A DNA stretch of 64,000 nt from Actinomycetota bacterium (GCA_035288045.1 DATEBA010000052.1:3788-67787), one strand, 5' to 3'. Shown: positions 6,517 to 60,747, counted from the stretch's first letter. The notes: generated from the sequence alone by a model not told the origin. Translations and numbers: made by a program.

Positions 6517-6651
6517 CGGGGCCCTCTCGGCGCATGTGGGGTCACGGCTCCGCAGGATACCCGAGGAGTTGCCGCCGAACGGTCGTTTCGCCGTCAGCAC
6601 GGGAGCCGGAGTCGTGGAGAATAGGACCGTGAGCGCTCCCGGGAGCCGGCG

Positions 6652-12380: not shown

Positions 12381-12728
12381 ATGGAAACCGGAACCTCCCC
12401 CGTCGTCTGGGTCTCCGACAAGGCCGCCCGCAAGATCTCCGCTCTGGCGGCCAAGGAGGGCCGAGCGGAGGCCTGGCTGCGCCTTCGGGTCGTGGCCGGA
12501 GGGTGCTCCGGCTTTTCGTACCGCCTCGCCTTCGAGGAAGGACCCGCTCCCGACGACCACGTCGTCGAGGGCGAGGGTGGGGTCCGGGTCCTGGTAGATC
12601 CGGCGAGCGCCCCGATCGTCCGGGGCTCCACCCTGGACTTCAACGACGCGCTCCTGGGCGGCGGCTTGAAGGTGATCAATCCGCAGGCCGTCCACGAATG
12701 CGCCTGCGGCGAGTCCTTCGCGATCTAG
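12381..12728 (+). CDS. Iron-sulfur cluster insertion protein (HesB/IscA/ErpA family)
   Basis: Has the three conserved cysteines in 'GGCSGFSY' and 'CACGESF', at the typical 115-aa size. Confidence 0.85.
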
Positions 12729-12780
12729 GCCGATCGGCCTGCCTGACCCCCGCGCGGGTCGCGCCTATACTTCCGGACGC

Positions 12781-13926
12781 ATGCCTGCCGCCGGCGACAA
12801 GACCCAGTGGCGCCACCTCTACAACGAGGTCGTGATGACCGGCCTTTGCACCGGGTGCACGGCATGCATCGTTGCCTGCCCGTTCCACGTGCTCGGCTAC
12901 GAGGACTACAAGCCGGTCCAGCTGCAAGAGGACGGCCCCGACGCCTGCACCCACGGCGACAAGGGTTGCTCCCTCTGCACCCTGGCGTGCCCTCGGTTCC
13001 GTGAGTGGGAGTCGGAGATCGACGTCACGCTGTTCGGGCAGGCGCGGGCACCCGAGGAGCTGATAGGCAAGTATCAGGACATCGTGCTCGCCCGGGCGGC
13101 GAACCCCGAGGTCCTGATGCGCGGACAGGACGGCGGGGTCGTGTCGGCCCTGCTGGTCTGGGGTCTCGAGAACGGCGAGATCGATGGCGTCTGCACGTCG
13201 AAGCTCTCGGAGGAGCGGCAGTGGGACTGCGAGCCCACCGTCGTCACCGACCGCGAGGGCGTCCTCGCCGCCGCGGGCTCGCGATACACCTACTCGGCGA
13301 ACCCGCTCGCGATGCTCAAGGCGGCCGAGATGGGCCTGTCGAAGCTCGCGCTCGTCGGCATGGGGTGCCAGGCGAGCGCCCCGGGGTCAATGACCGCGAG
13401 GCGGGTCAACAAGTGGGCGAAGAAGGTGACGTGGACCTTCGGCCTGCTCTGCTCGAAGAGCTTCACCTACGACGGGCTCATGGTTGAGATCGCCCAGAAC
13501 GAGCTCGGACTCTCGCTGGACGACATCGTCCGCGTGAACATCAAGGGCAAGCTTCTCTTCTACACGAAGGAGGGCCGGGAGCTCACCTACTCGCTCAAGA
13601 AGTCGCACCGGTTCACCCGCGAGGGCTGCCTTCTCTGCCCGGACTTCACGGCCGAGCACGCCGACATCTCCTTCGGTGGCCTCGGACAGGGCGAGGGCTG
13701 GACGCTCACGATCATCCGGACAGAGCGGGGCAGGGACGTCTGGGAGCGAGCCGTCGCCGACGGGATCGTGGAGTGGCGACCGGGCGCGGACGACCCCGAC
13801 GCCATCGACAAGATGTTCAAGCTCGCCGTCAGGTCCCGCGAGCGGTGGCCGGTCGACGAGCTCGGCGACGGAGCCCGCGCTCCCGGGCTGGTGCCCGTCG
13901 TCGCCCCATCGGGCGACGCTAGCTGA
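12781..13926 (+). CDS. Coenzyme F420 hydrogenase/dehydrogenase beta-subunit family protein (FrhB/FpoF-like) with an N-terminal 2x[4Fe-4S] ferredoxin domain
   Basis: The two ferredoxin motifs are '[12 protein letters not shown]' and 'CSLCTLACP'. The FrhB_FdhB N- and C-terminal regions are present, including 'LVGMGCQA' and '[15 protein letters not shown]'. Confidence 0.7.
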
Positions 13927-14117
13927 CGGGACCGACGCCCTCCCCCGGGCTCTCTACAGGCGGCCTCCGAACGCGCCGATAGAGTGGTGCCCGACCCACG
14001 GGCTCGCCAGCATGCTTCGACTACAGACGAAGAACCGTCGGCCGCTACGGGAGGCGCCGCCCACGTTGCGCGGGCGCCTCCCGGCCGAGCCGTTCGCACT
14101 ACCGGCGGGCTGAGGCG

Positions 14118-17039
14118 ATGGTCCCGGAGCAACGGCGCGACGATCAGGGTTCGCGCATGCTCGGGCCGGCCATGGACCTCGTCGAGCGCCGCGACGGGAT
14201 ACTCGGGACCGTCGCGGTCGCCGCGGAGCGGCTCCTGCTGACTCCGGACTGGCGACGGGCGATGGACGAGGTGCTCGAGCGGCTGGGCCGCGCCGCAGCG
14301 GTCTCGCGAACCTGGCTCTTAGAGAAGCACCTCGACGATCTCGGCGGTCCGCACTCCAGCCCTGTCGCCGAGTGGGCTGCGGCCGGCACGCAGGTCGACG
14401 ACCAAGCGCTCCAGGAAGCCCCTTGGCTCGAGTCCGGCTTCAGCCGCTGGGCGGAGCTCCTGCGGAACGGCCAAGTCGTCTGTGGCTCCGTCGCGGACTT
14501 CCCGGACGCCGAACGTCCGGCGCTCGAGTCCCGGGGGGTCGTTTCGATCCTCGCGATCCCCGTGTTCGCGGGCTCGGAGTGGTGGGGGGTGATCGGATTC
14601 GACGAGTGCACGGAGGAGCGCGATTGGACGCGCTCCGAGATCGACGTCCTTCGCGCCGCCGCCGGGATCGTCGGTGCGGCGATCCACCGGGAACAGGCCG
14701 ACACGCGCAGCCGCGAGGCCGAAGAGCGCTACCGGGCGATCGTCGATCGAACCCCGGCGATCACCTACCAGGAGGTGAGCCTCGAGGGCGGGGACTGGAA
14801 CGACGCGGTCATCTACGTCAGCCCGCAAGTGGAGGACATCCTCGGGTACACCGTCGAGCAGTTCCTCCAGCCCGCGTTCTGGACCACGATCGTGCATCGC
14901 GACGACCTCGAAGAAGTCCTCAGGGAGGGCGAAAGGACGGCCCTCGCGGGCGAGCCCTTCAGCATGGAGTACCGCATGATCGCCGCCGACGACCGCGTCG
15001 TTTGGATCCACGACCGCGCCGTGCGACTGCCGATCGGGCCCGATCGCCGCGAGGTCTGGCAGGGCGTGATGATCGACATCACGGAACGCAAGCTGGCCGA
15101 GGAGCGGCTGAAGGAGACGGAGCTCCACTACCGCAAGCTGGTGGAGCATCTGCCCGTGGTGACATACAGGGACGAGGTGAGCGTCGATGACCCGACCGAC
15201 GCCGTTCCGGCTTACATCGGGCCCCAGATCGAGCAACTCCTCGGCTGCACGCCCGAGGAGTGGGTGACCGACCCCGACCGCTGGGGCAAGAGCGTGCACC
15301 CGGAGGACCGCGAACGGGTCGAGCGGGCCGGCGACGAGGCGCGCATTACGGGCGCTCCATTCCACGCGGAGTACCGGATGCTGCACGGAGACGGCCGCAT
15401 CATCTGGGTCCAGGAGGAGTCGGTCCTCGTCCGCGACGACGACGGGCGTCCGCGCTACTGGCAGGGCGTCTACTCGGACATCACCGAGCGCAAGGGGGTC
15501 GAGGAGCGACTGCGGGATGCCGAGGACCGCTACAGATCCCTGGTCGAGCGGCTACCCGCGGTCGTCTACATCGAGTCGATCGCGCGGGTCCCCGGCGACC
15601 TCTACATGAGCCCACGCGTCACGGACGTCTTCGGCTACACCCCCGACGAGTGGCGGTGGACTCGAGGTTTCTGGATCGCCCGGATCCACCCGGATGACCG
15701 CGGGCGGATCCGCCTCCGCAACGAGCACGTGAACGCGACCGGAGAGCCCTTCGCCGAGGAGTACAGGTTCCTCTGCAAGGACGGCCGCTACCGGTGGGTC
15801 CTCGACGAGGCCTTCCTCGTCCGCAACGACGACGGTTCCCCCAGATACTGGCAGGGGTTCCTCATGGACGTCACCGACCGCAAGGAGGCAGAGCTCCAGC
15901 TGCGGGAGGCCGAGGAACGCTTCCGCACGCTCGTCGAGCAGAACCCGGCCGTGATCTACACGCAGGTCATCGACCCGGAGGACCCCACAGTGTCCAACAC
16001 CGTGTACATAAGCCCGAGCACGGAGCAGCTCGACGGCTACACGGTGGAGGAAACGATGGCGAATCCCCAGCGCTGGCGAGACACGATCCACCCCGACGAC
16101 AGGGAGCTCGTCTACGCGGCCGATGCGGAGTCCAACGCCACCGGCGAGCCGTTCGATCTCGAGTACAGGATCGTTCACAGGGCCGGCCGCGTCGTGTGGG
16201 TCCACGACCGCGCGACGATGATCAAGGACGAGCGCGGAAACCCGAGGTTCTGGCAGGGCGTGATGATCGACATCACCGAGCGCAAGGAGGCCGAGGAGCG
16301 CCTCGCGCACGCTCTGGATGTGGAGCGCGAAGCCACCCGACGCCTCCGGATGCTGGACGAGATGAAGAACACGTTCCTACAAGCGGTGTCGCACGATCTC
16401 CGGACGCCGCTGGCGGCGATCCTGGGACTCGCGGTGACGCTCGAGCGCGGGGATCTGGGTCTCACCCAGGAGGAAGCCAGGGAGCTCGCAGGTCGGATCG
16501 CCGGAAATGCGAGGAAGCTCGACCGCCTCGTGACCGACCTCCTCGACCTCGACCGCCTCGCTCGCGGGATCGTGGAGCCGAAGCTCTACCCGACCGACCT
16601 CGGGGCGCTCGCGCGACGGGTGGCCTCGGAGTCCGACCTAGCCTCGAACGGGCTCCTGGAGGTCGAAGCCGAGGACCTCGTTCTGGACGTGGATGCTCCA
16701 AAGGTCGAGCGCATCATCGAGAACCTGCTCGCCAACACCGCCCGCCACACCCCGAATGGCACGCGGGTCTGGATCCGGGTCGGTCGATCCGACGGCGGCG
16801 CGCTGATCTCCGTGGAGGACGACGGACCCGGCATCGCCCCCGAGTTCCGCGAGATGGTGTTCGAGCCCTTCCGTCAGGGCCCGGACGCGCCGACCCACTC
16901 TCCGGGCGTCGGCGTCGGGCTGACGCTCGTGGCGCGCTTCGCCGAGCTGCACGGCGGTCGCGCATGGGTAGAGGAACGCGAGGGCGGCGGAGCGGCCTTC
17001 AACGTGTTCCTGCCGGCGGGCTCCCCGCCCTCGACTTGA
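14118..17039 (+). CDS. Sensor histidine kinase with an N-terminal GAF domain, five tandem PAS/PAC domains, HisKA and HATPase_c domains
   Basis: The GAF region covers aa ~20-190. There are five ~125-aa repeats, each ending in 'WQGV..DITERK'-like PAC boxes. The H-box is 'VSHDLRTPL'. The ATPase G-boxes are 'DDGPGI' and 'GVGVGL'. The exact start is uncertain. Confidence 0.8.
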   Translation: MVPEQRRDDQGSRMLGPAMDLVERRDGILGTVAVAAERLLLTPDWRRAMDEVLERLGRAAAVSRTWLLEKHLDDLGGPHSSPVAEWAAAGTQVDDQALQEAPWLESGFSRWAELLRNGQVVCGSVADFPDAERPALESRGVVSILAIPVFAGSEWWGVIGFDECTEERDWTRSEIDVLRAAAGIVGAAIHREQADTRSREAEERYRAIVDRTPAITYQEVSLEGGDWNDAVIYVSPQVEDILGYTVEQFLQPAFWTTIVHRDDLEEVLREGERTALAGEPFSMEYRMIAADDRVVWIHDRAVRLPIGPDRREVWQGVMIDITERKLAEERLKETELHYRKLVEHLPVVTYRDEVSVDDPTDAVPAYIGPQIEQLLGCTPEEWVTDPDRWGKSVHPEDRERVERAGDEARITGAPFHAEYRMLHGDGRIIWVQEESVLVRDDDGRPRYWQGVYSDITERKGVEERLRDAEDRYRSLVERLPAVVYIESIARVPGDLYMSPRVTDVFGYTPDEWRWTRGFWIARIHPDDRGRIRLRNEHVNATGEPFAEEYRFLCKDGRYRWVLDEAFLVRNDDGSPRYWQGFLMDVTDRKEAELQLREAEERFRTLVEQNPAVIYTQVIDPEDPTVSNTVYISPSTEQLDGYTVEETMANPQRWRDTIHPDDRELVYAADAESNATGEPFDLEYRIVHRAGRVVWVHDRATMIKDERGNPRFWQGVMIDITERKEAEERLAHALDVEREATRRLRMLDEMKNTFLQAVSHDLRTPLAAILGLAVTLERGDLGLTQEEARELAGRIAGNARKLDRLVTDLLDLDRLARGIVEPKLYPTDLGALARRVASESDLASNGLLEVEAEDLVLDVDAPKVERIIENLLANTARHTPNGTRVWIRVGRSDGGALISVEDDGPGIAPEFREMVFEPFRQGPDAPTHSPGVGVGLTLVARFAELHGGRAWVEEREGGGAAFNVFLPAGSPPST

Positions 17040-17470: not shown

Positions 17471-18427
17471 CTAGGGGGCGACTGGTGAGGGGGCAAGGGC
17501 GAAGACCGTGCCCAGGATCGAGGAAAGGGGGTCCCTGCAGCGCACCGGGTATACGACCGGCAGGTCTGCCCCGGCATCGCGATACGCGCCCAGCCCGGTC
17601 AGGGCTCCCGACGCCTCCCCGAGCAGGCAGACGGCCCGGACCAGCGTCTCCGGCACGCCCTCAGGCCTCCCCTCACGGTAGGCCGCTGCCGCCGCCTCCG
17701 CCTCCGCTCCGAGGCCGACGTCGGCTAGCTGGCGCGAATAGGCCCGATAAGACGCGTACCGGCCCGCCGCCTCGCGGAGCGCCGCGAGCGCCGCCGGCTC
17801 GTCCTGACCTACGCAGGCCCGCACGTAGACCCCGATCGCGATCGCCGCGGGGTCGCGTCCTGCCGCCTCCGCGCCCTCGCGTACGCGATCTCGCGCGAAC
17901 GCAACCCGCTCCGGTGGGCACCAGTTGAGGAGTGCTCCGTCGGCGACCTCGCCGGCCAGCCGCATCGCCTTCGGGCCGAGAGCGGAGACCCACACTGGCG
18001 GAGGCGCCCCCAGCGCGAGCGACAGACGGGTCCTCTCGCCGTTCAGCTCGACGGCCTCGCCGGCGAGGAGGGCCTTGATCGCCAGCACCACGGCGCGCAA
18101 CCGATCGAGCGCCCCGCGACCGGCCTCACCGGTCCCGATCCCGAGGATCATGCGACCTCCCGAACGCTCGTGGACCGTCGCCGCGCCCATCGCGGTGACG
18201 ACGGGGTCGCGCGAATCCATCGCAACGACGCCCGTGCCGAGGCGGATCCGCTCCGTCACGCCGGCCAGCGCCGAGAGCTGCGAGAAGGCCTCGCGCCCGG
18301 TGATCTCGGGGACGAAGAGCGCCGCGTAGCCCGTCTCCTCGACGCTCTCGGCGACCTCGGCGAGAGCGCTCCACGGCAAGGGGTCCCGCACGGCTACGCC
18401 GGTCGTGTTGCGCAAGAAGGGCTTCAT
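17471..18427 (-). CDS. Luciferase-like monooxygenase (LLM) class F420-dependent oxidoreductase
   Basis: The product has a TIM-barrel LLM family signature throughout, including 'ALFVPE..GRE' and 'LGIGTGE', at ~318 aa. Confidence 0.7.
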   Translation of the reverse strand: MKPFLRNTTGVAVRDPLPWSALAEVAESVEETGYAALFVPEITGREAFSQLSALAGVTERIRLGTGVVAMDSRDPVVTAMGAATVHERSGGRMILGIGTGEAGRGALDRLRAVVLAIKALLAGEAVELNGERTRLSLALGAPPPVWVSALGPKAMRLAGEVADGALLNWCPPERVAFARDRVREGAEAAGRDPAAIAIGVYVRACVGQDEPAALAALREAAGRYASYRAYSRQLADVGLGAEAEAAAAAYREGRPEGVPETLVRAVCLLGEASGALTGLGAYRDAGADLPVVYPVRCRDPLSSILGTVFALAPSPVAP

Positions 18428-18465
18428 CCGTCCACGCTATTCGGCCGGCTCGGAGCGGACAAGCG

Positions 18466-40313: not shown

Positions 40314-40871
40314 ATGCCCGGTCCGGCCGCGACGGCGGGAGCCGCGCTCGGTGGCGTGACGCTCGCGCACTGCCTCGCCTACCTAGCCGCACTCCCCGCG
40401 GAGGCGGAACGTCATTCCCACATGACGGCGACGGGCCACGGCTCCTTCCCTATGCTCGTCGCGGTCGCCTCCGCCGCCGCGGGGGCGGCGCTGCTCGCGG
40501 TGAGCCTTCGAGCCCTCGGGCCCGCGGCAGCGCTCGGCGTCGTGCCGACCGCCGCACGCCTGGCGGCTATCCAGGTGCCCGGGTTCGCCCTGCTCGAGCT
40601 CATCGAGCGGCGTATGGGAGTGGGGTCCGCGCTCGCCGACCCGGCCGTCCGCGTCGGGCTGGTCCTCCAGGTCCTGGTCGCGCTCGGAGCCGCCCTCCTG
40701 CTCCGCGGCGTCGAGCGAACGGTCGGCGCGGTCGCCCGGCGTCGCCGTCGTGATGGGCGAGCCGTTCTCGCCCTCCCGCGACGCGGTTCGACGATCTCGC
40801 TCGCACCGCGTGCAACCCTCCTCGCCGCAGCTCCCAGACGCGCTCCCCCGCTGCCGCTCGCAACCACCTGA
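40314..40871 (+). CDS. Possible Ala-rich membrane protein (hypothetical)
   Basis: The internal ATG of ORF 40164..40871 starts the product 'MPGPAATAG'. Hydrophobic helices include 'HCLAYLAALP', 'MLVAVASAAAGAALLAVSL' and 'GLVLQVLVALGAALLL'. It could be a high-GC artifact. Confidence 0.25.
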   Translation: MPGPAATAGAALGGVTLAHCLAYLAALPAEAERHSHMTATGHGSFPMLVAVASAAAGAALLAVSLRALGPAAALGVVPTAARLAAIQVPGFALLELIERRMGVGSALADPAVRVGLVLQVLVALGAALLLRGVERTVGAVARRRRRDGRAVLALPRRGSTISLAPRATLLAAAPRRAPPLPLATT

Positions 40872-40912
40872 CACAGGGCCGCCACGCGGCCCTCGAGCGG
40901 AAGGTAACGAGC

Positions 40913-41359
40913 ATGGACAAGAGATGGATAGCGGTTGCCGTCGGCGTCGTCGCGCTCGTCGGGATCTTCCTCGCGGTTCGCCCGCGCGACGACGCCGACG
41001 TCCCGAAAGCCCCGACATCGACCGAGACTCCCTCCCCGAGCGGTCACGAGGACGGCGAGATGACGATGAAGCCGTCGGCGACGATGCCGGCAGAAGACGA
41101 GGTGCCGGTGGTGGTCGGAGTCCGAGCCGGGAAGGTGACGGGACCCGGCACGGCGACCGTTAAGGTCGGCGACCGGCTGCACCTCACCGTGACGTCGGAC
41201 GTCGTCGACGAGGTCCACGTGCACGGCTACGACCTGACGGCCGACGTCGGCCCCGACGAACCCGCGCACGTAGAACTCGTGGCCGCGACCGCCGGGATCT
41301 TCGAGGTGGAGCTCGAGGGCTCGGGCCTCCTCCTGGTTCGGATCCGGGTCGAGCCGTGA
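40913..41359 (+). CDS. Signal-anchored cupredoxin-like domain protein
   Basis: The N-terminal transmembrane anchor is 'IAVAVGVVALVGIFLAV'. The C-terminal beta domain 'KVGDRLHLTVTSDVVDEVHVHGYDL...GIFEVELEGSG' resembles the cupredoxin_1-type fold. Confidence 0.5.
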   Translation: MDKRWIAVAVGVVALVGIFLAVRPRDDADVPKAPTSTETPSPSGHEDGEMTMKPSATMPAEDEVPVVVGVRAGKVTGPGTATVKVGDRLHLTVTSDVVDEVHVHGYDLTADVGPDEPAHVELVAATAGIFEVELEGSGLLLVRIRVEP

Positions 41360-42723
41360 GAAGACGGCTCCTGCCGATCGCCACCGCGGGAGTGCTCTTC
41401 CTGAACGACGCTCGCCCGGCCCTCGCCCACGGCCTGGGCGGACGGCTCGACCTGCCGGTGCCGAGATGGTTGTTCGTCTACGGCGCGGCGGTCGCCCTCG
41501 TGATCTCCTTCGTGGCCCTCGCGGTGCTCTGGCGTTCGCCCAGGCTCGAGGGACGAAAGGAGCGTGATGGGCACGACGGCCCGCTGCAGTCGCTCCTCAG
41601 CTCGACGATCGTCGAGTGGACCCTTCGCGCGGTCGGGCTCGCCCTGTTCCTCCTCGTCGTGGTGGCAGCCCTCGGCGGTGTCGACGAGCCGACCGACAAC
41701 GTCGCACCCGTGTTCGTGTACGTATGGCTGTGGGTAGGGCTCGCGTTCGCCTGCGCACTCCTCGGGAACCTCTGGGCGACCCTCTCGCCGTTCGACACGG
41801 CGGCACGCCTGCTCGCGATCGGCGACGAGCCACGCCGCGCGTATCCGAAGGCCTGGGGCAAGTGGCCGGCGGCGCTCCTCCTCCTGGGCTTCACCTGGCT
41901 CGAGCTGGTCGCGCCCTTCGGCGCGACGCCCCGCACGCTCGGTGTCGCGATCGCCGCGTACACCCTGATCACGCTAACGGGCATGGCCGTCTTCGGCCGC
42001 GGCGAGTGGAATCGCCGCGGCGAGGCATTCGCGGTGCTCTACGACCTCCTGGGCAGGCTCGCGCCGTTCGCGAGGGACGGGGACGGCCGTGTGGTTCGCC
42101 GCCCGGTGCTCGGGGGGCTCCCTTCGCTCCGCCCCGAACCGGGGCTCCTGGCGTTCGTGGGTGTGCTGCTCGGCTCGACCACGTTCGACGGGGTGTCGCG
42201 CACGAGCGCGTGGACCTCGCTCGTCGGCGGCCTCGGGTCGGTGTCGAGAACGCTAGCCGGCACCGCCGGGCTCATCGCGGTGACCATGCTCGTCACGGGC
42301 GCCTTCTCGCTAGCCATGGCGTCGGCCTCGCTCGTCTCCGGCGAGCGATGGCACCCGCTCGCCGTCCGCTTCGCGCACAGCCTGGTTCCCATCGCGTTCG
42401 CGTACATGGTCGCCCACTACTTCTCGCTTCTCGTCCTGGAGGGCCAGCTGGGGCTGCGCCTCGTGTCCGATCCCTTCGGGCTCGGATGGAACCTGCTCGG
42501 CACCGCCGGCTGGAGCGTGAACCTCGGGCTCCTCTCGGTCGGCGTGATCTGGTACGTGCAGGTCGTCGCGATCGTGGCGGGACACATAGGCGGCGTCGTC
42601 CTCGCGCACGACCGCGCCGTGGCCTCGTTCCCGGCCCGCGTCGCGATGCGCACCCAGTACGCGCTCCTGGCCGTCATGATCCTCTTCACCGCGATCGGGC
42701 TGCTGCTTCTCTCGGGCGGATGA
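41356..42723 (+). CDS. Polytopic integral membrane protein with an N-terminal signal peptide (uncharacterised family)
   Basis: 'MRRRLLPIATAGVLFLNDARPALAHG' is followed by about 10-12 hydrophobic helices over 455 aa. The start overlaps the upstream stop as ATGA. Confidence 0.55.
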   Translation: MRRRLLPIATAGVLFLNDARPALAHGLGGRLDLPVPRWLFVYGAAVALVISFVALAVLWRSPRLEGRKERDGHDGPLQSLLSSTIVEWTLRAVGLALFLLVVVAALGGVDEPTDNVAPVFVYVWLWVGLAFACALLGNLWATLSPFDTAARLLAIGDEPRRAYPKAWGKWPAALLLLGFTWLELVAPFGATPRTLGVAIAAYTLITLTGMAVFGRGEWNRRGEAFAVLYDLLGRLAPFARDGDGRVVRRPVLGGLPSLRPEPGLLAFVGVLLGSTTFDGVSRTSAWTSLVGGLGSVSRTLAGTAGLIAVTMLVTGAFSLAMASASLVSGERWHPLAVRFAHSLVPIAFAYMVAHYFSLLVLEGQLGLRLVSDPFGLGWNLLGTAGWSVNLGLLSVGVIWYVQVVAIVAGHIGGVVLAHDRAVASFPARVAMRTQYALLAVMILFTAIGLLLLSGG

Positions 42724-47658: not shown

Positions 47659-48111
47659 TCAGCCGGGACGGAACGGCGGCAGGCCGTCCGAGGCCTGCGA
47701 CACGACGACCGGCCCGGAGCCGGTCAGCTCGGCGATCGTCACCGCCGCGCGGTTGTAGCCGTCGCGACTCCAGGACTCGACGACGTCGGCCACCGCACCG
47801 CCGGAGTCCACGACCACGAGGGTCGGCACGACCTCGATGCCGAAGGCGTTCGAAACCGGGTAGGGGTCCACGTCGGGGAGCGCTCGGATGCCCGTCCCGT
47901 GCTCGGCGCCGAACGCCGCGATGTCGCCGGCCGCGTCCTGCCCGATCCCGGTGACGAGCCCCGGGAACGCCCGGTCGACGACCTCGATCTTGGGGGCGCT
48001 CATCTGGCACACCGGGCAGGTCACCTTGAAGAACCAAAGGACCGACGGACCGGCGACGAAGTCGACGCCCGCAACCGGGGGCGCGTGCTCGCCCACTGCG
48101 ATCGCGCTCAC
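47659..48111 (-). CDS. Thioredoxin-like redoxin (AhpC/TSA or TlpA-like thiol-disulfide oxidoreductase)
   Basis: 'VLWFFKVTCPVCQ' is a CxxC motif after beta-strand 1, at 150 aa. Confidence 0.65.
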   Translation of the reverse strand: MSAIAVGEHAPPVAGVDFVAGPSVLWFFKVTCPVCQMSAPKIEVVDRAFPGLVTGIGQDAAGDIAAFGAEHGTGIRALPDVDPYPVSNAFGIEVVPTLVVVDSGGAVADVVESWSRDGYNRAAVTIAELTGSGPVVVSQASDGLPPFRPG

Positions 48112-48125
48112 CCGCTCAGCCTATC

Positions 48126-50714: not shown

Positions 50715-52346
50715 ATGTCGAGCCGCCCGACCCCCGAGACCGAAGGCACCGTCGACCTCCGGCAGTACATCGCCGTGATCCGCCGGAACCGGCGGCTGAT
50801 CGCTGCGGTCGCGGTCGGCTGCGTGGCTCTGGCCGCGCTGTACACCTTCATCCGGACACCGATCTACACGTCGAAGGCGAAGATCCTCCTTTCGCCCACC
50901 CTCGTGAACTCGACCGGCGTGGTGGATCTCGAGAAGAGCATCGACGCCAACACCGAGCGCGAGATCGCCCTGTCGAGCTCGGTGGCGATCCTGGCCCGCA
51001 ACACCCTGGAGAGCGAGGAATCCGTGCAGGATCTCGTCTCCCACGTGAGCGCCGACGCGCCGCAGGACTCCCGAACGCTGGAGATCGCCTTCTCCCACCC
51101 CGGCCCGAAGGCCGCCAGGGACGGGGCCTTGGCCTTCGCCAACGCGTACCTCAAGTACAAACGGGATCAAGCCCTGGCCGACATCCAGGATCAGATCGAC
51201 CCCCTGATCGAACAGATAAGCGAATACAAGGCCTACCGCTTGGAACTCACGGAGACGATCCGTTCCGAGAGACCGGGCTCGATCCCCGTCCAGCAAGCGG
51301 TCAACGACAAGCAGGAGGCGCAGGCCCAGATCGACTACCTGAACGGGCAGATAGCGGGCCTACAGGCCCTTACCACGAGCGGCGGAACCCTCATCGGGGT
51401 CCCCGCCGTTCCGCTTTCCCCGAGCAGCCCCAACCACCCGCTCGACGTCGGCCTCGGCCTGTTCTTCGGTGTCTTCCTCGGCTTCGGCCTCGCGTTCTTC
51501 CGCACGCGCGCCGACGCCCGCCTCCACGAGCGCCTGGAGCTGGAGCAGGTAGTGGGCGCGCCGGTGCTGGCGGTAGTGCCGAAGGACATCGAGTGGACCC
51601 ACAGGACGGCGCCGCGGCTGGTGACGGTGCAGGACCCGCGGGGACCGACCGCCGAGGCGTTCCGCACGCTTCGCCCGACGCTCCTCGTGTCGGCGGCACA
51701 GCAGAACGTTAAGGTCATCATCATCGCGTCGCCGACGGCCGGCGAGGGCAAGACGACGACGGCGGCGAACCTCGGCGTGGTGATGGCCCAGGCCGACCGG
51801 CGCACGATGATCGTTTCGGCCGACCTGCGCAAGCCGCGGATCCACGAGTTCTTCGGGCTGCCCAACGAACGAGGGCTCTCCGACGTGCTCACGGGCAAGC
51901 TCTCGCCGATGGACGCGCTGCGACGCTCCGGGGTCGAGAACCTCTGGCTCATGCCGAGCGGGCCGATCCCCGCTCAGCCGGCGGAGCTCCTCCAGTCGAT
52001 CGCCATGAAGGAGCTGCTCGCCGAGCAGCGGGGACTCGTCGATTTCATCCTGCTGGACTGCCCACCGATCCTGGCGGTGGCCGACACCCTCGGCCTGGCC
52101 GCTTATGCCGACGGCGTCTTGCTCGTCGCCAACGCCGGATCCACGACCATCGACGCGGCAGAGCAGGCGCGCGAGCGGCTGCACCAGGTCGGGGCGAGTA
52201 TGCTCGGCTGCGTCCTGAACGACCTCGACCTGAGCACGACCACCTCTTACTACGGATACGGATACGGCGAGGACGTCGCCGCACCTGAGCCGAACGGCAA
52301 AAAGCGCCGGGAGGTCTCGCCACGGCGCGGGCAGACCTCGAGCTGA
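50715..52346 (+). CDS. Polysaccharide co-polymerase / tyrosine autokinase (Wzc/BY-kinase-like, with Wzz domain and P-loop ATPase)
   Basis: There are two transmembrane helices flanking a periplasmic coiled-coil domain. The Walker A motif is 'ASPTAGEGKTTTAANL'. The C-terminal 'SYYGYGYG' is a tyrosine cluster. Confidence 0.8.
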   Translation: MSSRPTPETEGTVDLRQYIAVIRRNRRLIAAVAVGCVALAALYTFIRTPIYTSKAKILLSPTLVNSTGVVDLEKSIDANTEREIALSSSVAILARNTLESEESVQDLVSHVSADAPQDSRTLEIAFSHPGPKAARDGALAFANAYLKYKRDQALADIQDQIDPLIEQISEYKAYRLELTETIRSERPGSIPVQQAVNDKQEAQAQIDYLNGQIAGLQALTTSGGTLIGVPAVPLSPSSPNHPLDVGLGLFFGVFLGFGLAFFRTRADARLHERLELEQVVGAPVLAVVPKDIEWTHRTAPRLVTVQDPRGPTAEAFRTLRPTLLVSAAQQNVKVIIIASPTAGEGKTTTAANLGVVMAQADRRTMIVSADLRKPRIHEFFGLPNERGLSDVLTGKLSPMDALRRSGVENLWLMPSGPIPAQPAELLQSIAMKELLAEQRGLVDFILLDCPPILAVADTLGLAAYADGVLLVANAGSTTIDAAEQARERLHQVGASMLGCVLNDLDLSTTTSYYGYGYGEDVAAPEPNGKKRREVSPRRGQTSS

Positions 52347-52474: not shown

Positions 52475-54346
52475 GTGAGCGCGCTCTCGGTCCGCGGTCA
52501 TCTCCAGGACGCGCGAGCGGCGATGAACGCGGGGAAGCGCCAGCTGCTCGCGGGGGACGCAGCGGCCGCATCGCGGAGCTTCGAGGACGCGACCGCCGCC
52601 TTCGTCCGCGCGGCCGACGGTGCGGAGAGCCCGTGGATGCGCGTCGTTGGGTGGCTCCCGCTCGTGGGGCGGACGCCGGACACAATCACCTCCATCGCCT
52701 ACGCCGGCGAGGAGACGGCCGGCGCGGGGCGTACCCTGGCCGATGCGGTGGCAGACCTCCCCGGCGGCCTCGGCTCGTTGGCGCCCTCCGGGGGAAGGTT
52801 CCCGATCGAGCGGATAGCGAGCCTCGCCGGCGCAGTCGACCGGGCCGCGGCGCTCGTGAGCCGCGCGCACGCGCGTGTCGCGGCGAGTCCTGGGGAGATG
52901 CTCCCGGGCGTCGTCGACGACGCGAGGTGGGAGGCGGAGACCCAACTTCGGTCCTTGTCGACCTCCCTCGGGGCGGCCGCGCGGGTGCTCGAGGGGCTCC
53001 CGGGCTTCCTCGGTGCGGACGCCCGACGCCGGTACTTCTTCGGCGCGCAGAACCCGGCCGAGATCCGCGGGACCGGGGGTCTCATAGGCGCCTACTCGAT
53101 ACTGACGGTCGAGGACGGCCGGTTCGAGTTCTCCGACTTCCACCCGATCCAGGAGCTACCCCTGCTCGGCACGGAGAAGGTCGAGCCACCGAGCGCCGAC
53201 TACGCGAGGAACTACGACTACTACCGGTCGGGCGACGGGTTCTGGCTGAACGCCAACATGACGCCGGACTTCCCCTCGGCCGCCGAGGCCTTGGAGCTCT
53301 CCTACGAGGCGGCCACCGGCGACGAGCTCGACGGCGTGATCGCGGCGGACCCGTTCGCGCTCGAGGCGCTGCTGCAGATCACCGGCCCGACCGAGGTACC
53401 CGAGCTCGGCCTCGAGGTGGGGGCCGGGGACGTGGTGGCGTTCACGACGAACGAGGCCTACGCGAAGTTCACCGACGCGCCCACGCGCAAGCTTGTCCTC
53501 GGGGCGGTGGCCTCGGGCGTGTTCGACCGGTTCCTGCACATCCCCGACCCCTCGCTCCGGCAGCTGCGTGTGCTCGCCGACGCGGCCGCCGGCGGTCACA
53601 TAAGCATCTTCGCCGACGACCCGGAGCTGCAGGAGGGACTCGCCGCGACCGGCGTCGGAGGCGCGCTCCCCAAACCTACCGGTGACTTCCTCTCCGTGAT
53701 CCAGAACAACGGCTCGGCGAGCAAGGTCGATTTCTACCTCGAGCGCACGCTCACCCACCACGTCCGACTCGAGGGGGACGCCACGGTCACCGCGACGACG
53801 GCGATCACCTTCCGGAACGACGCCCCCGACCGCGGCATGCCGCGCTACGTGATCGGGCCGTTCCACGGGATCTCCGAGGCCGGGGAGAACATCCCTCTCG
53901 TCAACCTGTACTGCGGCGTGAACTGCACGCTGGCCGAGGCCGAGCGCGACGGGGAGCAGGTGGACCTCGCGCGGGGTACCGAGCTCGGCCTGACCTACTA
54001 CCGCGACTACTTCGACATCCCGAGCGGCCGCTCCGCCGAGCTACTGGTGGAGACCTCCACCCCCGATGCGTGGGAGGGGAACAGCTCGGGGGGCACCTAC
54101 CACCTCACGTTCCTCAACCAGACGACGATCCGGCCGACGCGGGTGCGGATCGAGATCGAGCTGCCGGAGGGCATGCGGGTCGCCCAGATGAGCGCGGATC
54201 TCCGCGCGGAGGGGGACACGCTGGTCTTCGAGGGGATCCCCCCGCGGCTCCTCGAGCTACAGGTGCGGTTCCGCCCCCCGTTCCTGCTCCGGATGTTGCG
54301 GAACGTGACGCGGTTCCTATCGGAGCCGGTGGTGCGGGTGGGCTAG
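52475..54346 (+). CDS. DUF4012 domain protein. Its N-terminus is uncertain.
   Basis: The size is 623 aa. The in-frame upstream 129 nt encode an Arg-rich plus transmembrane segment ('RRRRTLAAGDRRRRRLPRPP...LLATAVLVGALLGLSF') but contain no ATG/GTG/TTG, only CTG. Confidence 0.6.
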   Translation: MSALSVRGHLQDARAAMNAGKRQLLAGDAAAASRSFEDATAAFVRAADGAESPWMRVVGWLPLVGRTPDTITSIAYAGEETAGAGRTLADAVADLPGGLGSLAPSGGRFPIERIASLAGAVDRAAALVSRAHARVAASPGEMLPGVVDDARWEAETQLRSLSTSLGAAARVLEGLPGFLGADARRRYFFGAQNPAEIRGTGGLIGAYSILTVEDGRFEFSDFHPIQELPLLGTEKVEPPSADYARNYDYYRSGDGFWLNANMTPDFPSAAEALELSYEAATGDELDGVIAADPFALEALLQITGPTEVPELGLEVGAGDVVAFTTNEAYAKFTDAPTRKLVLGAVASGVFDRFLHIPDPSLRQLRVLADAAAGGHISIFADDPELQEGLAATGVGGALPKPTGDFLSVIQNNGSASKVDFYLERTLTHHVRLEGDATVTATTAITFRNDAPDRGMPRYVIGPFHGISEAGENIPLVNLYCGVNCTLAEAERDGEQVDLARGTELGLTYYRDYFDIPSGRSAELLVETSTPDAWEGNSSGGTYHLTFLNQTTIRPTRVRIEIELPEGMRVAQMSADLRAEGDTLVFEGIPPRLLELQVRFRPPFLLRMLRNVTRFLSEPVVRVG

Positions 54347-55166: not shown

Positions 55167-56129
55167 ATGCGTGCATCGCACGCGCGAGGGGGAACCGCGG
55201 TAGCCACGCTGCTCGCCATCCTAATTACGGTCGGCGCTTCGATGCCGATCAAGGCCGAAGTGGTTCGGACACCACCGCTCGTCCCGAGTCGTGGAGCCTA
55301 CTTCGGTGGCTACTACCGCATGACGGACTGGTCGGTCGAGGCTCAGAAGAGCACGTTCACCGATCTCGAGGCTGCCATGGGCCGGACCCTCGACATCGCC
55401 CACTTCTACTACGACTTCAACGGCGCCATCAACCCTTGGCGCGACAAGTGGCACATCGAGAACGGGCGCATCCCGATGATCTCGTGGCAGGGCTACTACA
55501 CCGACCAGATCATCACGGGCCAGCACGACGGGACCATCGCTCGCTGGGCCGACGACATCAAGGCGCTCGGTGCGCCGGTGTTCCTCCGGTGGTTCTGGGA
55601 GATGGACGACAAGAAGAAGGCGCACTGGACGCAATCGCCCGAGAACTTCATCGCGGCGTGGCGACGCCTGCACGACATCTTCACGGCTCGCGGCGCGACC
55701 AACGCCGTGTGGGTGTGGTGCCCGAACGCGTGGGCCTTCCGGGTCAACACGGCCAACCAGTACTATCCGGGCGACGCGTACGTCGACTGGGTGTGCGCCG
55801 ACGGCTACAACTGGGGGACCCTCGGCTACGGGTACGACTGGGATCTGTTCCCGGCGATCTTCGGCGACTTCTACGAGCAGTGGGCCGGACGCAAGCCGTT
55901 GATGGTCGGCGAGACCGGCGCCGTCGAGCAAGGGGGCAGGAAAGGGCGGTGGATACGAGACCTGCGCTCCATACTCCGGTTCCAGCTCCCGGAGATCAAG
56001 GCTCTCGTTTACTTCAGCTCGGCCGACGGCGTCTACGACTTCCGGATCGGGACATCGACCAGGGCGTACAACGGCTACACGGCGCTAGCAGGGCGACGGT
56101 ATTTCAATCCACCTCATCCCGCGAGCTAG
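55167..56129 (+). CDS. Secreted glycoside hydrolase, GH26-like (mannanase-fold)
   Basis: It has a signal peptide. The motifs 'WFWEMD' and 'MVGETG' are consistent with the GH26 catalytic acid/base and nucleophile Glu. Confidence 0.55.
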   Translation: MRASHARGGTAVATLLAILITVGASMPIKAEVVRTPPLVPSRGAYFGGYYRMTDWSVEAQKSTFTDLEAAMGRTLDIAHFYYDFNGAINPWRDKWHIENGRIPMISWQGYYTDQIITGQHDGTIARWADDIKALGAPVFLRWFWEMDDKKKAHWTQSPENFIAAWRRLHDIFTARGATNAVWVWCPNAWAFRVNTANQYYPGDAYVDWVCADGYNWGTLGYGYDWDLFPAIFGDFYEQWAGRKPLMVGETGAVEQGGRKGRWIRDLRSILRFQLPEIKALVYFSSADGVYDFRIGTSTRAYNGYTALAGRRYFNPPHPAS

Positions 56130-57397: not shown

Positions 57398-58273
57398 TCA
57401 GCTCCAGTCGAACCGACGACCGAGGAGCTCGAAGAGCCGTTCGTTGTGCGGCCGGAAGTGGGCGACGAGCCGCCGGCGCGTCTCCGGATCCATCGAGCCG
57501 CCCTCGGCGGCGTTGAACTTCTCGTAGCTGTTGAGGTCCATGGGTCGAACGCCGAGGAAAGCGTGCACGCGACGCAGCTCCTCTCCGGGTTGGGCGAAGA
57601 ACTCCTCGCTCCCGACGACGAGGAGACGCTGCCTGGGGAACCGCTCCAGCCAGACGCCGAGTTGGTCCGCGTACTCCCCCCGCGCCATGTAGGTGTGATG
57701 CTGGTGGGAGAAGCTCCGGTATCCCGGGTCGTCGCGGAGCCGCGCGAGCTCGCCAGCCGTTCGCTCGGGCTCGCGGGCGATGGCCTCCGCGAATGGCAGC
57801 GTTTCGTAGCCGAGCCGCGCCTCGTGACGCCATTGCGAGAACGCTCGCTCCACGGGGTCACGGACCATCGCGATGAGCCGGACGTCGGGGAGGAGGCCGG
57901 CCACGCGCTCGGGTACGAGGGGGTGGACCAGGTAGTAGGGGCTCGCCTCGCCCGGGACGAGCGACTCGCCGGTCCGCTCTCGGTGCCTCAGATGCGCCGC
58001 TCTGGTGGGGAAGAACCGTCGGTACCAACCCTCCCCGCGGTCGTACCGCAGGTCGAAGAAATGCACCTCCTTGGCCAGACGCGCGCCTGCGATGTCTGGG
58101 TGCCGGATGAGGTAGTTGTAAAGCGACGTCGTGCCGGCGCGCTGAGCACCGATGATGAGGTAGTCGGGGAGCACACGGGGACCGCCGACAGCGGCAAGTC
58201 CGACGCGGAGCACGCCTTTCGCGCTCTCCCGCACGTCGCGGGGCACGGCCCGAACGAGGCCCCGCACGCTCAC
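57398..58273 (-). CDS. Sulfotransferase (PAPS-dependent, Sulfotransfer_1/3-like)
   Basis: The 5'-PSB motif is 'LIIGAQRAGTTSL' and the 3'-PB region is 'RDPVERAFS'. The start is trimmed to a GTG at 58273 that overlaps the upstream stop as GTGA. The N-terminal Arg-rich part of the ORF overlaps the previous gene. Confidence 0.7.
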   Translation of the reverse strand: MSVRGLVRAVPRDVRESAKGVLRVGLAAVGGPRVLPDYLIIGAQRAGTTSLYNYLIRHPDIAGARLAKEVHFFDLRYDRGEGWYRRFFPTRAAHLRHRERTGESLVPGEASPYYLVHPLVPERVAGLLPDVRLIAMVRDPVERAFSQWRHEARLGYETLPFAEAIAREPERTAGELARLRDDPGYRSFSHQHHTYMARGEYADQLGVWLERFPRQRLLVVGSEEFFAQPGEELRRVHAFLGVRPMDLNSYEKFNAAEGGSMDPETRRRLVAHFRPHNERLFELLGRRFDWS

Positions 58274-60747
58274 GTCTCCCACCCGAAGTCGGTCCCGATG
58301 AGCTCCGCGAGCCTCCGGTTGTGCGGTGCGAAGTGCTCCCGCAGGCGGCGTCGGATCGAGGCTTCCATCGCGGAGCCGGGATGGTAGTTCAAGCGTCCAT
58401 ACCCCTCGAGATCGACGAGCGGGAGCTCCAGGAAGGCCTGGACGCGCCGGAACAGGCCGGCGGGGTCTTCGAACATGTCCTCGCTCCGCACGACGAGCAG
58501 CCGCTCGCGCGCGAACCGCTCGAGCCACAACTCCAGCGGTGCGGCGTACTCACCCTGGCCAACGTAGGTAAAGTGCTCGTGGGCGTAGCTGTACGCGTGC
58601 TCGTCGGCGAGCAGCCGGGCGGCCTCGCCTCGCACGCGATCGGCCTCCGCGTCTATGGCCTCTTCGAACGTGAGGGGCTCGGCGCCGTGACGGAGGCGCT
58701 CTCTGTAGTGGGAGAACGCGCGCTCGACGGGATCGCGAAGGATCACGATGAGCTTGGCGTCGGGCACGGTCCGATGCGCTCGCTCGGGGGCGCGCGGATG
58801 GAAGAGGTAATAGGGGCTCGCCTCGCCCCCGAGGTAGGGGCCGCCGAGGCGCCGCTCCATCCGCCGGACGCGCGCCCGCGTAGGGAAGTGCGATCGGTAC
58901 CATCCGTCCCCGTTCGCATAGTGCAGGTCGAAATACCGGATGCCCTTGATCCGTTGCACCGCAGGATATATCGGTGACACGTGCGGGTGCTGTAGGAGGT
59001 AGTCGAACAGCGAGGTCGTGCCGCCTCGCTTGGCGCCGATCACGAGGAAGGACGGGAGCCCGCGGGTGCCACCCGTGAGGACGCCCCACGAGCGAAGCGC
59101 CCCTTTCATCCCCTCCCGGACGGAGCGGGGCGCGCGGTGGCGGATCGGGGCGCGCAGCATCCCGGCAGAACCGTCGCCGTCACCTCCACGGCGCGAGAAG
59201 GCCCCCACGAGCAACGGAAGCCTAAGAGTGTGGCGCAGGCGCCACAGTAGCGGTCCGTACAGTCCGCCCGCGACCGCGAGCGCCAGGATCCCAGACCCCC
59301 AGGTCGCTCCGAGGGCGGCGCGCGCCGCGAGACCTGCGCCGCCGACGCAGACGAGCGATCCCGTTGCCACCTTCCAATACCCGTCGCCGAACGGGCGGAT
59401 CCCGAGAAGGAACCGGACCTCGAGCAACGCGGCGACGTTGTCGAACACGATGCTCGCCGTCCACGCGATCGCCGCGCCCTCGATCCCCAACCGCGGGATC
59501 AGGAGGAGGTTCAGCCCGACGTTCAACGTTACGGCGCCTATCGTGTTGAAGAGGTTCCACGAGCTCCTCCCGCCCATCAGCAGAACGGCCGTCACGTTGC
59601 CGGTGCCGAGGTTCACGAGCATCGCGAGCGAGAGGATCAGCAGCACGTGCTGGCCCCGCGGGAACTCGGGACCGAACAGGCCGAGCACGAATGGCGCGAA
59701 CGTGGCGAACGCCAGGTAGAGCGGCCACGATGCGGCGATGAGCCACCATGTGGCGACGCGGTAGAGGTCCTCCGCCTCGGCCTTGCGATCCCGCGCCAGT
59801 AGGCCGCTCAGCTGAGGCGCGAGGGCCAGCCGCACGGCCTGCAGAGCGAGCGTTCCCATCACCACCAGTCGGCTCACGGCCGCGTAGACGCCGGCCTCTT
59901 GAGCCGTCCTCATCGACGAGACGAGGAGCACGTCCAGCCAGGTGATCGCCACCTGGAACGCACCGGCGAGCCCGCGGGGGCCAGCGAAGCGCCAGAACTC
60001 GGTCGCCAAACCGGGCGGCCGTGAGCGTCGGGCCGGCACCCCTGCGTCGCGCTCGAGCGTCCGGACCAGCCGGTCGAAGACGAGGACGGCGACCGCGAAC
60101 CCGGCGACGACCGGGATCACCCACGCGAACGCGATCCACGTTGCGCTCAGGCCGAGCAGGACCGCCCCCAGCACGAGCAGCAGGCGTGCCGCGGGCTTCC
60201 CGAGGTTCTCGACCAGCACGTACGGCGCCATCGTGCCGAAGCCGCGAGCGCCCGACACCAGCACCGTGGAAGCGCCGGAGACGAGAAGGAACGGCGCGAA
60301 GAGACGCAGGTACTCGGAACCCTCCGCTCGGTAGGCTTCCTCGAAGATCGCGCGAGCGAGCGGGGCGGCGAGCGCGAACACCAATGCGGCGGCGACGCCG
60401 CCGGTCGCGAGCACCGGCCACAGCGCCGTCGCGAGGATCGGGCGAACGTCCGCGTCTCGGCCGAGCGCTCGGTATCGCGATATCGCACGGACGAGTCCCG
60501 TGTCGGCTCCGAGCTCCGTCACGTTGCTCGCGATCATGAAGAGCGCGACCGCCGCGAAGAAGACGCCGGCGCCCTCGGCACCGAGGCCGCGAGTAACGAC
60601 GACGACCAGGGCGAAAGCGAGGATCCCCCCGAGCACCATCCCGGCGAGGTTGAGCGACCCGCCGCGCGCCAGGAGGCCCAGGTCGTCGCTCCGGCGGCCC
60701 TGCGCCGCCCGAGACGGGGCCGCGAAGTCGCGCGCGCCCTCGAGCAC
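58270..60747 (-). CDS. Fusion protein with an N-terminal polysaccharide-biosynthesis flippase (Wzx/MOP superfamily, ~520 aa) and a C-terminal PAPS-type sulfotransferase (~300 aa)
   Basis: This is a single 825-aa open frame with no stop between the 12-14-helix Wzx-like part and the ST domain. The ST domain has 'FLVIGAKRGGTTSLFDYL' and 'RDPVERAFS' and is a close paralog of the downstream ST. Confidence 0.65.
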   Translation of the reverse strand: MLEGARDFAAPSRAAQGRRSDDLGLLARGGSLNLAGMVLGGILAFALVVVVTRGLGAEGAGVFFAAVALFMIASNVTELGADTGLVRAISRYRALGRDADVRPILATALWPVLATGGVAAALVFALAAPLARAIFEEAYRAEGSEYLRLFAPFLLVSGASTVLVSGARGFGTMAPYVLVENLGKPAARLLLVLGAVLLGLSATWIAFAWVIPVVAGFAVAVLVFDRLVRTLERDAGVPARRSRPPGLATEFWRFAGPRGLAGAFQVAITWLDVLLVSSMRTAQEAGVYAAVSRLVVMGTLALQAVRLALAPQLSGLLARDRKAEAEDLYRVATWWLIAASWPLYLAFATFAPFVLGLFGPEFPRGQHVLLILSLAMLVNLGTGNVTAVLLMGGRSSWNLFNTIGAVTLNVGLNLLLIPRLGIEGAAIAWTASIVFDNVAALLEVRFLLGIRPFGDGYWKVATGSLVCVGGAGLAARAALGATWGSGILALAVAGGLYGPLLWRLRHTLRLPLLVGAFSRRGGDGDGSAGMLRAPIRHRAPRSVREGMKGALRSWGVLTGGTRGLPSFLVIGAKRGGTTSLFDYLLQHPHVSPIYPAVQRIKGIRYFDLHYANGDGWYRSHFPTRARVRRMERRLGGPYLGGEASPYYLFHPRAPERAHRTVPDAKLIVILRDPVERAFSHYRERLRHGAEPLTFEEAIDAEADRVRGEAARLLADEHAYSYAHEHFTYVGQGEYAAPLELWLERFARERLLVVRSEDMFEDPAGLFRRVQAFLELPLVDLEGYGRLNYHPGSAMEASIRRRLREHFAPHNRRLAELIGTDFGWET

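Follow-up and report, generated by a model that had tools for sequence, protein, structure and literature searches.

According to PMC13390465 (2026), sulfated polysaccharides of bacteria have been reported only in cyanobacteria. The same source describes the wps-1 cluster of Actinoplanes missouriensis, the closest described system to the one presented here, as encoding the Wzx flippase WpsG, the heparan sulfate (HS)-type sulfotransferase WpsH, the kinase-like protein WpsI, the Wzy protein WpsJ, the Wzz protein WpsK, the GH26 protein WpsE and the GT2 protein WpsA. The Synechocystis xss (synechan) cluster is likewise devoted to a sulfated exopolysaccharide (EPS) of the Wzx/Wzy type and includes the sulfotransferases XssA and XssE, the Wzx protein XssH, a Wzy protein and a polysaccharide co-polymerase (PMC8205485). 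Here we describe a cluster on a stretch of 64,000 nucleotides from an uncultured Actinomycetota bacterium of soil type (GCA_035288045.1 DATEBA010000052.1:3788-67787), referred to below as the window, in which a Wzx-type flippase and a sulfotransferase of the kind that uses 3'-phosphoadenosine 5'-phosphosulfate (PAPS) are joined in one open reading frame (ORF), wzx-ST. That the fusion is real, and that its architecture, origin, topology and cluster context are those given below, is close to certain.

The ORF contains no internal stop codon in the ORF listing of the 64-kb window, and its GTG start sits 3 nt past the stop of the upstream Wzy-like gene. Pfam recognizes Polysacc_synt (PF01943; residues 27-312, 63.4 bits, cut-off 28.2) and MatE (residues 260-414, 28.8 bits, cut-off 24.9) in the N-terminal part of the protein, and in the C-terminal part Sulfotransfer_1 (PF00685; residues 566-777, 46.2 bits) and Sulfotransfer_3 (PF13469; 54.7 bits), both of which exceed their gathering cut-offs. 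The AlphaFold2 model computed with the family alignment (mean predicted local distance difference test score, pLDDT, 86.4) has helices to residue 518, a disordered segment at residues 519-538 with pLDDT below 50, and then an α/β domain. The NCBIfam profile for one named subfamily, NF041503 (WZX_like), gives 19.5 bits with a cut-off of 300, and judged by these profile scores the flippase part is a member of the broad MOP/Wzx family outside that curated subfamily. No informative NCBIfam assignment was obtained for the fusion protein or its gene neighbours in the profile search. A member of the fusion cluster is already public at NCBI (HLB62427.1), where it is labelled just 'oligosaccharide flippase family protein [Actinomycetota bacterium]'.

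An earlier interpretation of the window made without database searches, here called the sequence-only reading, had described a single stop-free ORF of 825 codons joining flippase and sulfotransferase, and the ORF listing, the Pfam matches and the codon statistics uphold this description. The GC content at third codon positions (GC3) in the fusion frame is 0.75-0.98 over the entire ORF and 0.78-0.82 at the junction (codons 460-560). Since it is unbroken, a single frame is coding throughout and the ORF is not a chance product of a genome with 70% GC. The identical 825-aa protein is present on at least seven contigs from at least four independent ENA assemblies, and 825-aa variants of it occur in JGI data. 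Independent nucleotide copies show 0-2 differences from the window, all of them protein-neutral, and no indels, and are thus natural strain variants rather than one repeated error. The frameshift or missed stop that had been thought conceivable at 59100-59300, the stretch in which the linker falls, is absent from the independent assemblies. The same architecture, sought in relatives, was found in seven species representatives (see below) and in 37 protein clusters at the 90% identity level, drawn from ENA, JGI, Logan and NCBI; the clustered proteins are 796-853 aa long, contain both domains and are 45-100% identical to the query. Mean pairwise identity within this fused family is 0.58 for the flippase part, 0.55 for the sulfotransferase core and 0.29 for the region of residues 506-540, which varies in length from 32 to 49 residues. 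Two equally conserved domains separated by a variable region are what is expected of two constrained domains and a tether.

In the structural model the flippase domain consists of 14 long helices with pLDDT mostly above 85, in line with the two-lobed MOP fold of 12-14 TM helices. Foldseek aligns it to the lipid II flippase MurJ, a protein with 14 transmembrane (TM) helices, with TM-scores of 0.70-0.76 over approximately 510-540 columns (for 7wax, a target score TMt of 0.70 across 533 columns); for WzxE (9g9n), which flips lipid III, the match to the membrane domain has TMt 0.77. When the 14 helices are laid out with the N-terminus inside, the inside loops contain 31 lysines and arginines and the outside loops three. 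Both flippase termini are predicted to be cytoplasmic, and the positive-inside distribution over 14 helices would have the sulfotransferase domain face the cytoplasm, in agreement with the earlier placement of this domain. PAPS is made in the cytoplasm. The pathway context is that of a Wzx/Wzy system, with a Bac_transf phosphoglycosyl transferase, a Wzy-like gene and a Wzz/BY-kinase in the same cluster.

The sequence matches of the C-terminal domain in PDB are HS3ST3A1 (9e-26), 3RNL and NDST1, and Foldseek retrieves the bacterial sulfotransferase 3RNL, 3-OST-1/3/5 and NDST1 with a target TM-score of approximately 0.77. The residue K573, counterpart of K162 in 3-OST-3, is invariant in 37 of the 37 fused proteins, and R574, T578, S579, R671, S679 and D607 are invariant in the family as well. 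Glu184 is the catalytic base of 3-OST-3, and each of the mutations E184Q, H186F and D189N leaves less than 1% of the activity (PMC8341778). In the fused domain an invariant G602 replaces E184 and R604 replaces H186, and D189 is kept as D607. Among the flippase-adjacent sulfotransferases examined, which included fused and split forms and those of cultured genera, an invariant Lys is followed by Gly, Ser, Ala or Thr and never by Glu, and the position of His186 is occupied by Arg or by variable residues. Decay specific to the fusion was considered as a reason for the Gly at the Glu position and was rejected, as every unfused flippase-adjacent sulfotransferase also lacks the Glu. A second domain of the Sulfotransfer_1 type in the cluster is encoded by the stand-alone gene directly downstream. 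The fused domain (class A) and the stand-alone enzyme (class B) both align best with 3-OST-3 and are paralogues with 50% identity; class B keeps the canonical K-E-V-H-F-F-D, whereas class A has K-G-I-R-Y-F-D. On the basis of these alignments, the class-A domain shares its fold and cofactor site with the family and is not a canonical catalyst of the 3-OST/NDST type. Its earlier designation as a full PAPS-type sulfotransferase stands as far as the complete fold and the PAPS motifs are concerned and fails for the canonical catalytic Glu and His.

The phosphoglycosyl transferase, together with the Alg14/Alg13-like glycosyltransferase and the GT2 enzyme, is proposed to assemble the repeat unit on undecaprenyl phosphate on the cytoplasmic side of the membrane. 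Behind TM helix 14 of the flippase, a flexible tether of approximately 20-35 residues leads to a cytoplasmic PAPS-dependent carbohydrate sulfotransferase domain, which, held at the cytoplasmic mouth of the flippase, would sulfate the lipid-linked unit using PAPS. The flippase domain would then translocate the sulfated unit, Wzy would polymerise it, and the Wzz/BY-kinase would set the chain length. Such a fusion would fix a 1:1 stoichiometry, bring a soluble enzyme to its membrane-bound substrate and channel the product into export. That the lipid-linked repeat unit is sulfated just before it is exported can reasonably be supposed, and the architecture points to a physical coupling between the sulfation of this polysaccharide and its export. 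In PMC13390465, deletion of wpsH in A. missouriensis is reported to give the same null sporangium phenotype as deletion of wzx, wzy or the whole wps-1 cluster; the deletion of wpsI is also null, and sporangia look normal after deletion of wpsB, which encodes the other sulfotransferase. The coincidence of the wpsH-null with the wzx- and wzy-null phenotypes is as expected if export or polymerisation requires this modification. In other Wzx/Wzy systems (succinoglycan, xanthan), non-sugar decorations are added on the lipid-linked unit, and both Wzx and Wzy can show selectivity towards such groups.

Several points weigh against this proposal. The canonical Glu and His are missing from the fused domain and, as the alignments indicate, from the whole flippase-adjacent class, so that catalysis would need a different base. 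The genes of PAPS synthesis (cysC, cysD/N) were sought across the whole window and none was found. Furthermore, the authors of PMC13390465 stress that sulfation has not been chemically verified for wps-1, and chemical evidence of a sulfated polymer is lacking for the cluster in the window as for any actinobacterial relative. The window contains a PALP+CBS cystathionine beta-synthase-like gene (6625..8016, + strand) beside one for a Cys/Met-metabolism PLP enzyme (8515..10011, + strand), which indicates reverse transsulfuration and not PAPS supply. With these genes present instead of those of PAPS synthesis, the supply of the donor is not arguable from context. The mechanistic part of the proposal, in which acceptor, timing and catalytic activity are inferred, is nevertheless considered probable, with considerable room for doubt.

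Catalytic bases are found at non-equivalent positions among sulfotransferase families (PMC11625862). Given this variation, and with the PAPS motifs and D607 invariant, an active enzyme with a different base appears more likely than a dead domain. The main alternative is that the C-terminal domain is a non-catalytic or repurposed module of the sulfotransferase fold, which would bind PAPS, 3'-phosphoadenosine 5'-phosphate (PAP) or an already sulfated unit and serve as a checkpoint or regulator of the flippase; the unit would be sulfated beforehand by the class-B enzyme and by the enzyme fused to Glyco_tran_28_C (GT28_C) in the same operon. The replaced Glu and His speak for such a module, as the corresponding mutations abolish the activity of 3-OST-3, and so do the two other sulfotransferase domains of the cluster, of which class B retains the canonical E-x-H-F-F-D. 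A cytoplasmic pseudo-enzyme domain following TM helix 14 of a MOP flippase also has a precedent (PMC6180346). Pseudo-enzymes, however, usually lose some of the residues that bind PAPS and stabilise the leaving group, all of which are invariant here, and conservation of the class extends to hundreds of genomes in the actinobacteria; the shifting position of the base among families further weakens the argument from the missing Glu. The checkpoint is for these reasons judged unlikely, though it deserves to be kept in mind more than any other alternative to a tethered, active sulfotransferase.

The distribution of fused and split forms was followed in a scan with one genome per species (GTDB representatives). 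It returned 590 pattern matches, and the fact that 509 of these encode a relative of the query indicates that sulfotransferase-rich Wzx/Wzy clusters are common in Actinomycetota. The counts given here rest on the best 80 of the 509 relatives, with the fused or split state judged by ORF extent. In 71 of the 80 a sulfotransferase comes immediately after the flippase, as a separate gene in 64 and fused in seven, and all seven fused representatives are metagenome-assembled genomes (MAGs) of uncultured Actinomycetota. The pair is split in every cultured genus matched, namely Actinocorallia, Micromonospora, Arthrobacter, Nocardioides, Nonomuraea, Actinoallomurus, Actinomadura, Sinosporangium and Spirillospora. 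The best relatives among the species representatives are 49-54% identical to the fusion. The Micromonospora relatives, which we take to belong to the same family (Micromonosporaceae) as A. missouriensis, are 36-39% identical. As most orthologues are two adjacent genes, the fusion is a labile, lineage-restricted form of a gene pair that was already known, and does not constitute a new type of system. The concern of the sequence-only reading that orthologues might be consistently split does not hold, since fused members occur among both the species representatives and the protein clusters, even though the majority are split. Its interpretation is retained for a genuine fusion with a cytoplasmic sulfotransferase and has to be qualified in two respects, as the fused state is a labile minority and the canonical catalytic base is absent.

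In neighbour-joining trees the fused forms fall into one large clade, in which they are interleaved with split forms; the window, three other fused members (P0002, P0003 and P0004) and the split locus L002 are grouped together with 97% bootstrap. A single origin of the fusion was rejected, since monophyly of all fused forms was recovered in 0 of 60 bootstrap replicates and parsimony from a split root requires at least six changes, with the caveat that some split states in error-prone MAGs could be artefacts. An exhaustive protein search covering 1.84 billion representatives added a distant fused lineage (P0157, 35% identity) and a protein of reverse order, ST-Wzx, in which the same sulfotransferase class is N-terminal to the flippase (P0132, a single contig). 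Metagenomes also contain members of this flippase family joined to Wzy (Wzy-Wzx of approximately 1000 aa, several representatives), to a methyltransferase, to GT4 and to the kinase-like neighbour; examples of the fusion types, the reverse order included, are P0132, P0135, P0141, P0146, P0154, P0159, P0194 and L090:5429-7924. These candidate fusions, among which gene-calling artefacts are possible, suggest that Wzx is a focal point for fusions within the assembly machinery.

Such lability also bears on what the fusion is for. The sulfotransferase might be active on an earlier intermediate or on another acceptor, and its attachment to the flippase might be a near-neutral loss of a stop codon without any channelling role, bringing about membrane recruitment at most. 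Fusion and fission are frequent and seemingly well tolerated, as the parsimony changes and the predominance of split pairs indicate. Of the 64 split genomes, 28 have both genes in one frame, with approximately 20 pairs separated by the flippase stop codon alone, and the flippase family has the other fusion partners listed above. On the other hand, the fused state persists across a clade reaching down to approximately 45% identity, with comparable constraint on both domains, and the same sulfotransferase class is joined to the flippase in both orders and is strictly adjacent to wzx across the phylum. This near-neutral explanation is regarded as quite improbable. The strict adjacency, the repeated fusions including the reverse order and the genetics of A. 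missouriensis together lend support to a specific partnership of flippase and sulfotransferase.

Comparison with split loci reveals how the fusion arose. The gene order of L002 is GT2 - Wzy - Wzx (539 aa) - 10-bp gap - sulfotransferase (295 aa) - sulfotransferase (292 aa) - 426-aa protein - GH26 - DUF4012 - Wzz, and in L003, which has the same gene order, wzx and the sulfotransferase gene are separate with a 4-bp overlap. The fusion junction is collinear with the flippase tail and the sulfotransferase head of these split genes. The in-frame ATG of 'MLRAPIRH', to which the sequence-only reading had drawn attention, is indeed present at the junction, and M530 aligns no more than two residues from the initiator Met of the separate sulfotransferase gene in L002. 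No Shine-Dalgarno sequence is found at a working distance from M530, the sole GGAGG lying 22 nt upstream, and M530 is thus a relic start codon. The collinear junction and the relic start show that the fusion arose by loss of the stop codon and a short spacer between a conserved, translationally coupled wzx and the downstream sulfotransferase gene, a pair of the wpsG-wpsH type. The start of the class-B gene is either a GTG at 58273 overlapping the TGA of the fusion (GTGA) or a GTG 3 nt past it. Either start means tight packing suited to translational coupling, an arrangement that eases stop-loss fusions.

The position of M530 close to the ancestral start would also be compatible with one ORF giving two proteins, in which a free sulfotransferase continues to be made by internal initiation, with the full-length fusion as a minor product. 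This is highly improbable, as the only GGAGG is too far away and the Met itself is not kept: P0002 and P0003, the fused proteins most closely related to the one in the window, carry Ile in its place, and it is absent from other fused members too. An artefact (missed stop, frameshift or chimeric assembly) or a decaying pseudogene, which the long spurious ORFs of high-GC genomes and the mostly split orthologues could have suggested, is effectively refuted by the recurrence of protein and frame in independent assemblies with only protein-neutral SNPs, by the fused clusters from four sources, by the continuous GC3 and by the conservation of both domains, and artefact and internal initiation are very unlikely even when taken together.

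The remainder of the cluster was completed from sister contigs that are 99.9% identical to the window and reach past its right end. The operon order is Bac_transf phosphoglycosyl transferase - Alg14 - GT28_C-ST (490 aa) - GT2 - Wzy-like - Wzx-ST - class-B sulfotransferase - kinase-like protein, and the genes for GH26, DUF4012 and Wzz/BY-kinase are divergent to it (Table 1). In total the cluster accounts for three steps of glycosyl transfer and has three sulfotransferase domains, of which two are fused to assembly proteins. At the position orthologous to the Wzy-like gene, Wzy_C is present in L002 and L003.

Table 1. Features of the wzx-ST fusion and of the genes around it, in coordinates of the window
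Feature	Length or residues	Coordinates	Strand	Remarks
Fused ORF wzx-ST	825 aa + stop	58270..60747	-	GTG start at 60747, TGA at 58270-58272
Flippase domain	res 1-518	59194..60747	-	14 TM helices, MOP-superfamily Wzx/PST type, predicted N-in/C-in
Flexible linker	res 519-540	59128..59193	-	Gly/Arg/Pro-rich; contains M530
'MLRAPIRH'	res 530-537	59137..59160	-	M530 codon at 59158-59160
Sulfotransferase domain, class A	res 541-825	58273..59127	-	HS 3-OST/NDST-like fold; Pfam, PDB sequence matches, Foldseek
5'-phosphosulfate-binding loop GAKRGGTTS	res 571-579	59011..59037	-	Invariant in 37/37 fused proteins
K-G-I-R-Y-F-D	res 601-607	58927..58947	-	Aligns with 3-OST-3 A-E184-P-H186-F-F-D189
3'-phosphate-binding motif RDPVERAFSH	res 671-680	58708..58737	-	R671, S679, H680 invariant
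Stand-alone sulfotransferase, class B	289 aa	57398..58267	-	Pfam; K-E-V-H-F-F-D motif
Kinase-like protein	409 aa	56164..57393	-	Marginal Pfam APH, E 6e-5, 23.3 bits vs cut-off 23.2
Wzy-like polymerase	435 aa	60751..62058	-	Wzy_C below threshold, 25.7 vs 31.7
GT2 glycosyltransferase	304 aa	62058..62972	-	Pfam, gene call
Second fusion (GT28_C-ST)	C-terminal ~340 residues of 490 aa	62969..64000	-	Glyco_tran_28_C + Sulfotransfer_3; cut by window end
Wzz/BY-kinase-type polysaccharide co-polymerase		50715..52346	+	Cluster member
DUF4012 protein		52523..54346	+	Conserved cluster member
GH26 glycoside hydrolase (WpsE-like)		55167..56129	+	Conserved cluster member

The operon thus contains a second sulfotransferase fusion, in which an Alg13-like Glyco_tran_28_C domain (residues 60-143) is followed by Sulfotransfer_3 (residues 184-413). 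A full copy is found at L088:6307-7779, where a separate Alg14 gene adjoins it, and the fusion is also present in the relatives L001 and L003. The kinase-like protein of 409 aa is conserved directly downstream of the sulfotransferases and is the positional counterpart of WpsI; no sequence relatives of it were found in PDB. The genes for GH26 and DUF4012 are kept in this EPS cluster across the distant relatives L001, L002 and L003. PMC13390465 appears to call GH26 in a Wzx/Wzy cluster unusual. In the organism of the window but outside the window itself, just upstream of the priming transferase of the EPS operon, Tad/type-II-secretion-like genes (a T2SSE ATPase and two T2SSF, one with VWA) are found at L088:1-4073, and the same Tad-like neighbourhood in a 47%-identical relative (L001:1-4682) hints at a conserved surface-structure neighbourhood. 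Elsewhere in the window there are genes without an obvious link to the EPS cluster, encoding an F420-related FrhB/FdhB-like protein (12676..13926, + strand), a luciferase-like monooxygenase (17471..18436, - strand), a 1018-aa GAF/multi-PAS histidine kinase (13983..17039, + strand) and an EAL-response regulator beside a hybrid kinase (3061..5538, + strand). The stretch of 38.5-43.3 kb is poorly annotated, and ORFs of high GC3 without any Pfam family (201, 519 and 153 aa) occur at 40754..42723 (+ strand) and 47659..48120 (- strand).

More tentatively, the flippase might stand at the centre of a 'sulfo-glycan assembly line' with physically coupled parts, in which each of the three sugar-adding steps would be paired with a sulfotransferase domain, two of these being covalently tethered (GT28_C-ST and Wzx-ST). 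The Glu-less class-A domain would then be either a sulfotransferase that modifies an undecaprenyl-PP-linked oligosaccharide by a catalytic arrangement not described before, or a quality-control gate that flips only correctly sulfated units. This extended scheme is a speculative one, and we regard it as doubtful. If it were true, heavily sulfated, glycosaminoglycan-like EPS would be widespread in soil Actinomycetota, where none has been chemically demonstrated.

As a 'Rosetta stone' fusion, the protein provides strong natural evidence of joint work, here between Wzx and one particular class of sulfotransferase, which would act at the flippase or together with it on the cytoplasmic side. It frames the question of where and when bacterial EPS is sulfated and whether Wzx flippases read such modifications, for which it offers a test case in a single polypeptide. 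The active site of the flippase-adjacent class, Glu-less and otherwise intact, poses an enzymological puzzle, and a self-contained sulfating export module could serve the engineering of microbial sulfated polysaccharides.

Searches of a library of papers for a fusion of a flippase or Wzx with a sulfotransferase found no description of one, and the sequence-only reading, too, was aware of none. The fusion is a real and previously undescribed architectural variant of a known system, under-annotated in public databases, and is not categorically new. Compared by the description in PMC13390465, the domain content and order of wps-1 match those of the cluster in the window. The two differ in that wpsG and wpsH are separate genes in wps-1 and one ORF in the window, and in that the window cluster adds the GT28_C-ST fusion, Alg14 and DUF4012 and is without a methyltransferase. 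The Synechocystis xss cluster belongs to another phylum and has all its genes separate, and a flippase-sulfotransferase fusion is not reported for it (PMC8205485).

Parallels to the fused architecture itself are found in proteins of other pathways. The mycobacterial MurJ (MviN) is also a 14-TM MOP flippase of Actinomycetota in which TM helix 14 is followed by a linker and a cytoplasmic domain of an enzyme fold (PMC6180346, citing Gee et al., 2012), but there the added domain is a pseudokinase with a regulatory role, and the flippase works on lipid II instead of an EPS repeat unit. The HS 3-OST-1/3/5, NDST1 and 3RNL, the best matches in sequence and fold, have in common with the class-A domain the Lys of the 5'-phosphosulfate-binding loop, the Arg and Ser of the 3'-phosphate-binding motif and the equivalent of Asp189, and differ from it in the base Glu (E184/E90) and His186, which are Gly and Arg in class A. 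NDST, too, combines a modifying enzyme with a sulfotransferase in one fused protein. The animal 3-OST and NDST enzymes act on finished polymers in the Golgi lumen, whereas the domain in the window is predicted to be cytoplasmic and is tethered to a flippase. In Halobacterium salinarum the pathway is archaeal N-glycosylation on dolichol phosphate, with separate enzymes and an unfused flippase, but it offers a precedent in that the lipid-linked glycan is sulfated once it is complete and is processed ahead of its translocation (PMC13308652).

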